The position numbers are program-made. Shown piece by piece: positions 1 through 3,000 of a DNA stretch of 64,000 bases (position 1 is its first letter; each line of letters begins with the position of its first letter). Source of the DNA: a virus (lineage: Duplodnaviria > Heunggongvirae > Uroviricota > Caudoviricetes). The stretch lies in the IMG/VR virus record IMGVR_UViG_637000265_000001; one strand, written 5' to 3'.

Positions 1-3000
1 TCGCTCGCCACGGGAATATCTGCGGCAGCGGGCTTGTAATGGGTTAAGTGATAACAGATGTCTGGAAATATAGGGGCAAATCCAGTATAAGCCATTATCA
101 AACCCACCCGTAGATAGGCTTTGTAATGGCTACTTCTTCAGAAATGATTCGATGAATTCACGTCGAGGATGACGATAGTTCAGAATATCTTCTGGCATCC
201 TCATAAAGCGGTTGTTGCCGTCTTTGGCAGTAACAAAACAGCTGTGAACTCCGCAGACATCCGTTTTGATCGTGTCGCTATACTCAAAAAGCAACTGAGC
301 CATCTTCTCTTGCCATTCTGGAGGCATAGCCTCCATGAATACTCGCGGCATCACGCAGAACGACGCATGCGTAAGACCAAACCACAGTTGCAGGTCTTTA
401 CGATATTCTTCATCCATCGTCTTTACCTTTGTTGCAATAAAAAGCCCCGCGAATGCGAGGCTAAATCCTGGTGTTTGTGATGACTGGCTCTTATCTAAAC
501 GCAGCCCCTTACCGCGCGCCAAATGCTCAACTTTAAGCATCAGCAATGAGATGTTTAATCTGGATTCACTCCAGAAGTGATCACCACCCTGTCTACAGAG
601 CCAGATGTGAAGGATGATGAGTAAAATTATCTCTATCATCGAAGGCATTGCGTCCTGATATATTCCTGAAGCGTTCTCAGTGCTGTCTGGTCTCTGATGA
701 TTCCGTCCCGGATACCGAGAACGTTTCGTCCAGCAACTGGAGAGAGTTCGACGGTGGCATCATTGCCCATGCCGGAGGCGCTGGAGGTTTCGGCTGAGGA
801 TGGCACAGGGCATTTTCCTTTGACGAGCACCCGACCACCATTATCAAGCTTGCGCCGAAGAGCATCATTTTCAGCTTTCGCATCAGCTAACTCCTTCGTG
901 TATTTAGCATCGAGTGCATCAGCATCACGCTGGCGCTGCTGCATGTCAGTAATGGTTGCGTTCGCCAGCTTCAGTTCTCCGGCGTTTTTGTCGCGCTGCT
1001 CTTTGTAGGTAATGGCGTTATCACGGTAATGATTAACAGCCCATGACAGGCAGACGATGATGCAGATAACCAGAGCGGAGATAATCGCGGTGACTCTGCT
1101 CATTGATCTATCTCCCAACAGGCTAATGCGCTTTCCTGGTCACGACGAATAACCTGTCCATAGCAGTTATTTGAACGTATGCGGCAATCGCGCCCAACAT
1201 CTTTTATCCACCAGCGAATCGCCTCGCATGCGCCCTTACGATCACCGGCATTCAGCCGCTTATAAAACGTCGACGGGAAACACTTACCGGGGCCAATGTT
1301 ATAGGGGCAAAATGACGCTATACCCGCTTTCTGGGGTTCGGTCAGAGGTACTTTAATATTGCGCTCCACCCATGCCAGCGCCTTATCACGTTCAATAGCG
1401 TTAACCTGGTCACATTTTTCCTTCGACAGCTTCATTCCCGGTATGACAGGCTTACCATCCACCATTGTGGCACCACGACAGATGGTCCATATGCCAGAAC
1501 CATCACGGTATGCCGTTGTGTGATTACCCTCTTTTTCGTTCAGAAACTGGTCAAGTATCTGGGGAGCAGACGCGCCTGCGGCAATCAGCGCCAGAACAGC
1601 AGCCGACAGGCCGTATTTGATTTTTGCGCTCATGGATATTTATCAGGATTTATCGGCAACAAATAACGAGCCAACTTATATACGCCTTTTAAGATAAGTC
1701 AGCCCCGGCTGGATCCAGTCATCAGGCTCTTTCTTAAAGGGGGAGTATTGAAATCACGAAGAAGAGCCTCCCGCACCGCAGCATCCATGTCTGCACCACT
1801 GGCAAGTGCTTCAATCTCTGCCGCCACCTGCAAATACCCCATGCAACGGCCAATGCGTTTCATAACTCTGGTGTTTTCGTCTTTCAGGCATCTGATAGCG
1901 AGATTAATAATTTTCAGGCAGTGATGATGCGATGCCCGGACAGGTTTTCCGTTCTCATAAACGACGAACTCACCCTCTTCACAGGAAACCCTGAAAGGCC
2001 GATGGGGTTCCTGGTCTTTATCCGGTGCAGACGCAATAAAATCACTTTTATGCTCTTCCTCTCCGGCACTGTTAACCGTAATGACGTACTCAGGCCGCAG
2101 GTAAGCCGCCTCTTTTTCTGACAATGCGGCCGGTAAAAACTTTTCCTGCAAAAACTTCATAAAAGTCTCGTGAGCGACTTTGTGGCAGTAATCGTAAATC
2201 GCCGCATAATGCTCATCGCGGCGTTTGTTTTCATCTTCAGAACTCACCAACGCCGACAAATTTTTTATTAAGCTCAGTGATTTCATTTTCCAGGTGATTG
2301 AATCGCTGATTCATTTCTTCATGCTTCATTATTTACTCTCCCCGTGCAGCCTTACGCTTGTCTTCTCTTATTTTGAAATATAGATTCGTCAGATAAGTCA
2401 GAAGCCCCAGAAGCAGACTTCCCAGCACACCAATCGCAGCCCACTGTGATGGCCTGACCTGATCCAACCACTGCAAAAACCAGTAGCCGGCACTGCCGGC
2501 GGAGGTGCCGTAGGCAATGCCCGTTGAAATTTTGTCCATGGATTTCATAGCCTCACCTCCGCAAATAACGGATGGCGTAGTTTTACACTGAGAAATGAAA
2601 GGGATTTGAAAAGAAAAACCCGCAAAAGCGGGCGAAACGATATATACAGTAAGGAAAGCACTCTATCCAACAAACCACCCACAGTTAATCGGAATAAAAG
2701 CAGAGTGCTTATGAATGATCGCCTGCCCGAAGGTTAGTATTTCTGCACAGCAATTTTGCAAAAAAAGCGATCATTCATAACTTAAACGTCTTTCAGTCAC
2801 TCCGGGATTTCCCATCATCGCAGACTGAAAGACTCTAACTGGAGCGGGCAGCGGGAATCGAGGTATCGAAGATAATCAGCCGCTAACCATTTGCTTCCTA
2901 AAGGATGATGAATCCTTGTGGTTACAGTTATGGTTACACATTAATTTATCTCTGGTCAAGTCCTCTCGTGACTCTGGAACGAGTAACCGAAGTCCTAACT

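Follow-up and report, generated by a model that had tools for sequence, protein, structure and literature searches.

The 3′ external transcribed spacer (ETS) of the Escherichia coli glyW-cysT-leuZ tRNA operon, 3′ETS-leuZ, is an RNA of about 50 nt that lies between the last tRNA of the operon and its intrinsic terminator and is made as part of the tRNA precursor. Structured RNAs that end at a terminator also occur in lambdoid phages, in the interval between the late gene Q and the holin gene: the pR′–tR′ RNAs (lambda 6S RNA; isrK, isrJ and STnc100; PasD and StxS) start at the promoter pR′ directly after Q, carry a qut or pause region and stop at a terminator that Q-modified polymerase would read through. 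The 3′ ends of tRNA genes are, in addition, occupied by genomic islands such as the small glyU elements of E. coli, in which the right arm of the island abuts a displaced tRNA 3′ end, with related islands carrying an integrase beside the restored tRNA. Here we analyse a 64,000-nt stretch of DNA, referred to as the window, from the Caudoviricetes record IMGVR_UViG_637000265_000001 of the IMG/VR database, and specifically its minus-strand interval 2549–2861, in which three nested inverted repeats and a terminator-like hairpin precede a holin gene.

This interval is probably the 3′ trailer of a tRNA operon from a lambdoid phage, severed from its upstream part by a genomic island and the insertion sequence IS911 so that it now stands alone ahead of the lysis genes; its terminator would serve to end the tRNA transcript. 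The position of the trailer matches that of 3′ETS-leuZ, but at ~185–230 nt it is longer, it has three conserved hairpins and it is phage-borne; release from the precursor, binding of Hfq and sponge activity could be proposed for it by analogy only. It shares with the pR′–tR′ RNAs its place between Q and the holin gene and its structured fold ending at a terminator, but it follows tRNAs, lacks a promoter of its own and matches none of the Rfam models of such RNAs. The DNA upstream of it resembles the right arm of a glyU island abutting a tRNA 3′ end, except that the target is a phage-borne tRNA-Gly(UCC) within a prophage late operon, not the chromosomal glyU (CCC), and that one junction is left.

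Small RNAs are also known immediately beside the holin–lysozyme operon of lambdoid prophages, as is the region described here: PasA and PasC of enteropathogenic E. coli (EPEC), which are ~80 nt long and antisense to late genes (PMC8550237; bioRxiv 10.64898/2026.05.13.724894). With the PasA, PasB and PasC sequences taken by their published EPEC coordinates, only chance 10–16-mers of PasA and PasC align to the trailer, and the Pas RNAs are antisense whereas the structure here is on the sense strand; PasB is located in the tail region and has no sequence similarity.

A conserved structured RNA attached to tRNA-Gly

Positions 2540–2861 of the window are 98.8–99.7% identical to the interval between tRNA-Gly(UCC) and holin gene S in four E. 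coli phages and in many E. coli prophages. Of 5426 complete E. coli genomes, 523 (~10%) carry 80% or more of the 291-nt spacer, and blastn matches to it occur in 543, with at most five copies in each. More diverged copies are found in phage HK639 (~77% identity) and in other E. coli prophages. The gene order in these relatives is Q, tRNA-Met/Ile(CAU), tRNA-Lys, tRNA-Thr, tRNA-Gly(UCC), ~290 bp and holin S. With the regulatory elements included, the late region of the intact relatives reads Q, pR′/tR′ (IsrJ/IsrK-like), a second promoter, the tRNAs, three hairpins, a terminator and S.

The predicted transcription signals of one intact relative, L001, follow this order. A promoter-like site at L001 3501–3529, overlapping the end of Q, precedes a tR′ hairpin (3581–3604), the position of pR′/tR′; this pair (3501–3606) lies directly after Q and before the tRNA cluster, ~430–700 bp further upstream. 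A second promoter-like site (3674–3702) ends 10 nt before tRNA-Met, the first tRNA, and the sole terminator downstream of it and after the tRNAs is the hairpin before S. At this pR′/tR′ position, Rfam gives weak isrK-like matches and, in other relatives, isrJ matches, and in the four relatives and Salmonella Fels-1 no Rfam family covers the hairpins. The order of tRNAs, hairpins, terminator and S identifies what the preliminary description of the window had called a regulatory leader as the tail of a tRNA operon.

The structure itself was placed correctly in that description. The three inverted-repeat pairs are all perfect, with lengths of 9 nt (hairpin 3), 14 nt (hairpin 2) and 11 nt (hairpin 1; coordinates in Table 1). 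Perfect repeats of 11 nt or more around a loop no longer than 60 nt occurred in six of 2000 dinucleotide-preserving shuffles of 2549–2861, and those of 14 nt or more in none, so the repeats are not chance. The minus-strand RNA of 2549–2839 folds at −97.1 kcal/mol (z = −5.1; none of 200 shuffles as good), and the plus strand folds more weakly (−71 kcal/mol, z = −3.4). The predicted fold is almost fully paired: hairpin 2 stacks to ~22 bp, and in hairpin 3 the conserved GGGTGGTTTGTTGG pairs with the upstream TCCGATTAAC. The terminator-like hairpin, found by a terminator scan, reads GCCCGCTTTTGCGGGT followed by TTTTTCTTTTC at 2633–2618, with the T-run extending to ~2608; it has six pairs, five of them G–C, and a 4-nt loop. 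The description is also right that 2549–3302 lacks a convincing open reading frame (ORF): at 2876–3279, two mechanical ORFs (113 and 124 aa) lie in DNA that is unannotated in relatives, and the indels that separate this stretch from relatives are not multiples of three.

Comparison across homologous prophages, which the preliminary description had proposed as a check, supports a fold conserved as RNA. Two pattern scans of IMG/VR gave more than 150 viral loci, from which 59 distinct sequences were aligned for hairpins 2 and 3 and 29 for hairpin 1. Hairpins 2 and 3 are paired in 98.5% of alignment cells, compared with 33–48% in slid controls in which the partners were moved by 1–3 columns, and eight of their pairs show compensatory changes. 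Such changes are seen at four of the eight outer pairs of hairpin 3 and at three of the twelve outer pairs of hairpin 2; with four further pairs in hairpin 1, the three hairpins have 12 in all. Beyond what pairing needs, the loops and the G/U-rich arm are conserved too. The stems were defined by inverted repeats alone and are in that sense neutral as to strand; their non-Watson–Crick cells comprise 58 G·U and 8 A·C on the late-sense strand, an excess that assigns the structure to RNA of the same sense as the late genes. An independent pattern for hairpin 3 found matches in Citrobacter sedlakii, Phytobacter ursingii, E. coli and Shigella flexneri that also carry the hairpin-2 motif. Hairpins 1–3 are a conserved structured RNA.

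The unit to which this RNA belongs can be read from its spacing. In 127 of 152 viral loci, the end of tRNA-Gly(UCC) lies at a fixed 75–76 nt before the hairpin-2 motif; in a few loci without hairpin 1, the distance is 18–20 nt. Hairpin 1 begins 1–7 nt after the CCA end and is present or absent as a unit. On the other side, a terminator-like hairpin follows hairpin 3 within 12–26 nt in most variants, with at least six unrelated sequences at that position, and the downstream genes are holins of many unrelated families, ~210 to 750 nt away. The unit is therefore tRNA-Gly, three hairpins and a terminator, tied to the tRNA and not to the holin or to Q. In related loci, the hairpins thus occupy the place of a 3′ trailer, after the last tRNA and before the terminator of the operon; of this tRNA, the window keeps the last 22 nt.

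Several smaller variations were noted among the copies. The T-run of hairpin 2 (2739–2765) has 7–9 T among near-identical viral copies. The G/T boundary of the terminator (2608–2633) is GCGGGTTTTT, GCGGTTTTTT or GCGTTTTTTT, of which the latter two shorten the stem. An anti-Shine–Dalgarno helix in the minimum-energy fold (CCUUACU with GGUGAGG) is lost in close variants (CCTTTCT, CCTGACT) and was rejected as a feature. By inspection, hairpin 3 is unlikely to form a riboswitch-like alternative pairing with the terminator, whose sequence is replaced across lineages with hairpin 3 unchanged. An origin of hairpin 1 as a decayed 3′ half of tRNA-Gly was likewise discarded, as its local alignment was no better than that of shuffles (610 of 1000 as good).

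The island junction and the absent Q gene

The preliminary description noted that no Q gene lies within reach, and this holds for the whole 64-kb window: tblastn with three Q proteins gave no match. ARAGORN found no tRNA in the window, and it contains no island integrase. With Q, integrase and tRNAs all missing from the 64 kb, the trailer, terminator and lysis cassette here are an orphaned relic without their activator.

Homology to the phage interval breaks exactly at 2861, inside the tRNA. In S. flexneri SFBU1023, which has the lysis cassette at 99% identity and an intact tRNA-Gly, homology with the window ends at the same position. Upstream of the break, 2862–5612 (minus strand) corresponds to part of a small (~6 kb) glyU-type element encoding Rha, a 64-aa ORF, a DUF6971 protein and a protein of 373–405 aa. 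In E. coli LR-64-1 and 21AR0133, the glyU island has the order glyU, integrase, Rha, small ORF, DUF6971, 373-aa protein, ~420 bp and displaced glyU 3′ end. The tRNA remnant together with the arm to ~2960 (2840–2960) matches the right end of this family of glyU-inserted elements; in strain FT130, a related small element that shares this 120-bp right end adjoins glyU, the end is found beside glyU in many genomes, and many others carry it unannotated. The sequence across the break, ...GATTATCTTCGATACC followed by TCGATTCCCGCTGCCCGCTCCA, has the layout of an attR site, and the same arm is joined to a displaced glyU 3′ end in L173 and L003. The junction at 2861 has the form expected of an integrase-mediated insertion into the phage tRNA-Gly.

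On its other side, the island is cut by an IS911 copy that is 99.7% identical to a copy in L177. One end of this IS911 is joined to the truncated Rha gene of the minus strand and the other to a plus-strand gene for a P22-like terminase large subunit that lacks ~67 profile positions at its N terminus; the flanks of the element, cgc and gcc, show no 3-bp target duplication. The missing duplication and the truncated genes on each side point to recombination between IS copies, and the junction looks like the product of recombination between two copies of IS911. Q would then be absent because the island insertion into tRNA-Gly and the IS911 junction together removed Q, pR′ and the tRNAs.

The features of this part of the window are collected in Table 1. 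In the lysis cassette, the 195-aa ORF between the holin and lysozyme genes (1699–2286, minus strand) belongs to phrog_1085, of unknown function, and has no Pfam, NCBIfam or PADLOC match; in the E. coli relatives, a YdfR-family gene occupies its position. In the island, the orphan protein has no match in Pfam, PHROG, NCBIfam, PADLOC, PDB sequences or 50,697 phage records, and the DUF6971 protein has a charged helical C terminus. The rest of the window (7915–41946) holds P22-type portal and head genes, a contractile-tail sheath gene (27647–29143), a gtrA/gtrB-type O-antigen glucosylation cluster (37992–40524) and an integrase (40786–41946), a composite whose prophage modules are of the kind typically seen in Shigella or E. 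coli.

Table 1. Coordinates of the lysis cassette, trailer, island remnant and IS911 in the window
Feature	Coordinates	Strand	Basis
Rz spanin gene	636–1118	−	Pfam search (PF00959, PF03245 in cassette)
Lysozyme gene	1100–1633	−	Pfam search (PF00959, PF03245 in cassette)
Holin gene, 71 aa, phage-21 S type, class II	2333–2548	−	Pfam PF04971, E = 5.5e-35; PHROG holin families; class II holin annotation in relatives
Holin 5′ untranslated stretch with Shine–Dalgarno GGAGGTGAGG	2549–2607	−	Read from sequence; ~99% identical in relatives
Intrinsic-terminator-like hairpin GCCCGC-TTTT-GCGGGT with T-run	2608–2633	−	Terminator scan; predicted
Hairpin 3, outer stem 2656–2664/2702–2710; 3′ arm with conserved G/U-rich GGGTGGTTTGTTGG	2657–2709	−	Repeat search and fold
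Hairpin 2, outer stem 2709–2722/2767–2780; inner helix, cUUCGg mini-hairpin, conserved TTTTTGCAAAATTGCTGTG	2710–2779	−	Repeat search and fold
Hairpin 1, stem 2788–2798/2823–2833; conserved loop TGCGATGATGGG..CCCGGAGT; absent from some lineages	2782–2838	−	Repeat search and fold
Last 22 nt of phage tRNA-Gly(UCC) gene (TCGATTCCCGCTGCCCGCTCCA); displaced 3′ end at island junction, attR-like	2840–2861	−	Identical to 3′ end of tRNA-Gly in L001
Non-coding right arm of small integrative island	2862–3302	−	83–93% identical to right end of glyU island, E. coli 21AR0133 and LR-64-1
Island orphan-protein gene, ORF of 405 aa; 373-aa homologues start at ~4442	3303–4520	−	96.5% identical to WP_112015287 of glyU island
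Island DUF6971-family gene	4544–4999	−	Pfam PF22318, E = 1.8e-43; neighbour as in glyU island
3′ part of island Rha-family regulator gene, cut by IS911	5280–5612	−	tblastn aligns only residues 125–235 of 235
IS911 copy, joining truncated island to truncated P22-like terminase gene	5615–6864	+	OrfA recognised; IS911-family transposase annotated in E. coli records

Recombination is also focused on the phage tRNA-Gly gene in relatives, where it forms a hotspot, and the trailer is kept in each of three cases: a hybrid tRNA in E. coli E7-1N7 that is missed by ARAGORN (L005 2424–2500), a 5′-truncated tRNA-Gly after tRNA-Asn in HK639 (L004 2412–2492) and, in PEC422, an HNH endonuclease gene after which just a 3′ fragment of the tRNA is left (L006 2029–2492). 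In HK639 and Fels-1, the interval between Q and the holin gene is a chain of small RNAs and terminators. In HK639 (L004 2255–3140), tRNA-Asn and the trailer are accompanied by an STnc100 homologue, four terminators and an isrJ-like RNA, which at 34.6 bits falls slightly short of the gathering score; in Fels-1 (L183 1900–3660), STnc100 is present in three copies, and the trailer is decayed and interrupted by a moron gene that encodes a 120-aa protein.

Proposed function and competing explanations

In the intact operon, tRNA-Gly is followed by about 185 nt of RNA folded into three hairpins, and then come the terminator and S. This gene order, together with the homology, the conserved late-sense pairing and the recurrence of a terminator of unrelated sequences at the same position, leads us to infer the following function. 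In the lysogen, transcripts from the tRNA promoter would stop at this terminator, such that the tRNAs and the trailer are made and the holin, lysozyme and spanin genes are not expressed; once the prophage is induced, Q-modified polymerase from pR′ would pass both tR′ and the trailer terminator. The hairpins would constitute a discrete, stable RNA module on tRNA-Gly, for which a trans-acting or sponge RNA, a processing signal and a stabiliser are candidate roles. In the lineage of the window, the 3′ end of the phage tRNA-Gly would have been invaded by a small integrase-type island whose normal site is chromosomal glyU; a rearrangement mediated by IS911 would then have eliminated the upstream half, and with it Q, pR′, the tRNA promoter and the tRNAs.

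Several observations weigh against this account. The promoters and terminators are putative, being known only from matches to a consensus. Two or three clades supply most of the compensatory changes, such that the number of independent events is small, and two of the conserved motifs served as search patterns, which partly imposes their invariance in the sample. The terminator stem is weakened in several close variants (GCGGTTTTTT, GCGTTTTTTT), so insulation of the lysis genes may be leaky or not strongly selected. As for the island, attL, with integrase and restored tRNA, is present in E. coli relatives but not in the window, where IS911 cuts the island at 5612–5615; the same island–phage junction was not found in the 5426 E. 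coli genomes or in IMG/VR, and thus integrase-mediated insertion is deduced from one junction. The island arm was not found in IMG/VR either.

Three other explanations concern what the interval is. The preliminary description read it as a regulatory RNA or leader, pR′/qut-like or a small RNA; the first of these amounts to a lambda-type late leader, in which pR′ and qut give a short RNA that ends at tR′ and on which Q acts. A hairpin with a T-run just 5′ of the holin gene does recall lambda tR′ ahead of S, and the conserved structured RNA, its terminator and the lack of Q all stand; yet a scan for sigma-70-like promoters found none in 2200–4700, and an Rfam 15 scan of positions 1–12000 (E ≤ 1) matched no family, isrK, isrJ and STnc100 included. 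Moreover, pR′/tR′ of the intact relatives is a separate element after Q and upstream of the tRNAs, with a promoter-like site ~700 bp upstream of the terminator seen here, and it is tRNA-Gly, not Q, from which the hairpins keep a fixed distance. We consider a pR′/qut/tR′ unit hardly tenable. A small protein is still harder to credit: hairpin 2 contains a 14-codon ATG-initiated frame, ATGAATGATCGC...TAA, and a 43-aa antisense ORF is annotated in the record of phage vB_EcoS-689R5, but the frame is shifted by the T-run, which is 7, 8 or 9 T long in near-identical relatives, and the antisense ORF spans the terminator, whose sequence is unrelated in other lineages. A feature acting as DNA, such as miniature palindromic mobile elements, a recombination site or a protein-binding site, would fit the recombination hotspot at the adjoining tRNA-Gly 3′ end (hybrid tRNA, 5′ truncation, HNH gene insertion and island insertion) and the gain or loss of hairpin 1 as a unit. 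Cruciforms or duplex binding sites would, however, show no strand preference of the kind seen in the G·U count, the element is single-copy in the window with no dispersed copies, and all inspected places among the genomes that carry it are in a phage late region; we regard this explanation as very improbable.

The remaining explanations concern what the RNA does. As a cis-acting leader of the late mRNA, the hairpins could guard the new 5′ end from RNase E after tRNA excision, or could hold RNase III sites that set holin dosage or lysis timing. The start of hairpin 1 so close to the CCA end, the nearly complete pairing with its long hairpin-2 stack and the constant presence of a holin gene downstream are consistent with such a role. 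The varying distance to the holin makes a cis role less likely than a trans or sponge role; a terminator also stands between hairpins and holin, and HK639 and Fels-1 have other small RNAs, terminators and even a moron gene there. Overall, we judge a cis-acting leader improbable. HK022-type put RNA, in which two stem-loops act in cis to make polymerase termination-resistant, provides a further model, opposed here by logic only: read-through from a constitutive tRNA promoter into the holin gene would be harmful.

A trans-acting role would add to the trailer reading rather than replace it. By analogy with the leuZ 3′ETS, the trailer or its 3′ part (hairpin 3, A/U-rich linker and terminator) may be cut from the tRNA precursor and act as a regulator or sponge bound by Hfq or ProQ. 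The conservation of loops and G/U-rich arm beyond pairing needs suggests as much, as does the layout of stem-loop, A/U-rich linker, terminator and U-tail, which is that of known small RNAs; the Q-to-holin interval of related phages is rich in small RNAs (isrJ, STnc100, PasA, PasC and PasD). There is also a comparable case in EPEC (E. coli E2348/69), where an Hfq-associated small-RNA candidate of prophage PP10, in the E2348C_ncR36/E2348C_2757 intergenic region, lies downstream of a pseudogenic tRNA-Gly (PMC8550237, table S6). Against this role, the flanking 5–10 kb of phage DNA at 163 loci holds no conserved site complementary to the loops, the G/U-rich stretch is predicted to be paired and not free, and the weak istR-like Rfam matches, at 25–26 bits where the gathering score is 45, are no better than chance. 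We judge a released trans regulator rather unlikely. The PP10 candidate itself (L182 2058–2366, which ends in a terminator) is analogous in position to the trailer and unrelated in sequence, and was set aside as a homologue.

A broader proposal, which we make tentatively and with the odds somewhat against it, is that hairpins 1–3 represent an uncatalogued family of phage non-coding RNA tied to tRNA-Gly(UCC), expressed constitutively in lysogens from the tRNA promoter and either acting in trans or tuning read-through into the lysis genes. The proposed family would span lambdoid prophages of Escherichia, Shigella, Citrobacter and Phytobacter and, in decayed form, Salmonella Fels-1. A full-text search of a library of papers for six motif strings of 14–16 nt found none that contains them.

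Implications for lambdoid prophages

For the window itself, the question raised by the structured DNA before the holin gene is closed: this is a rearranged prophage remnant in which the lysis genes are without their late promoter. Such a state is ordinary for this genome, a mosaic and disrupted prophage. The by-product of the analysis is a widespread and structurally conserved RNA that is absent from Rfam 15. This ~185-nt RNA with three covarying hairpins has complete copies in about one in ten complete E. coli genomes and is found in more than 150 viral contigs, always between phage tRNAs and lysis genes. The remnant also offers a case of a phage-borne tRNA gene serving as a landing site for a genomic island of chromosomal type.

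If the RNA is expressed in lysogens from the tRNA promoter, it would add one more member to the already dense set of regulatory RNAs between Q and the holin gene. The terminator would then explain how phage tRNAs can be expressed constitutively beside lysis genes without killing the host.

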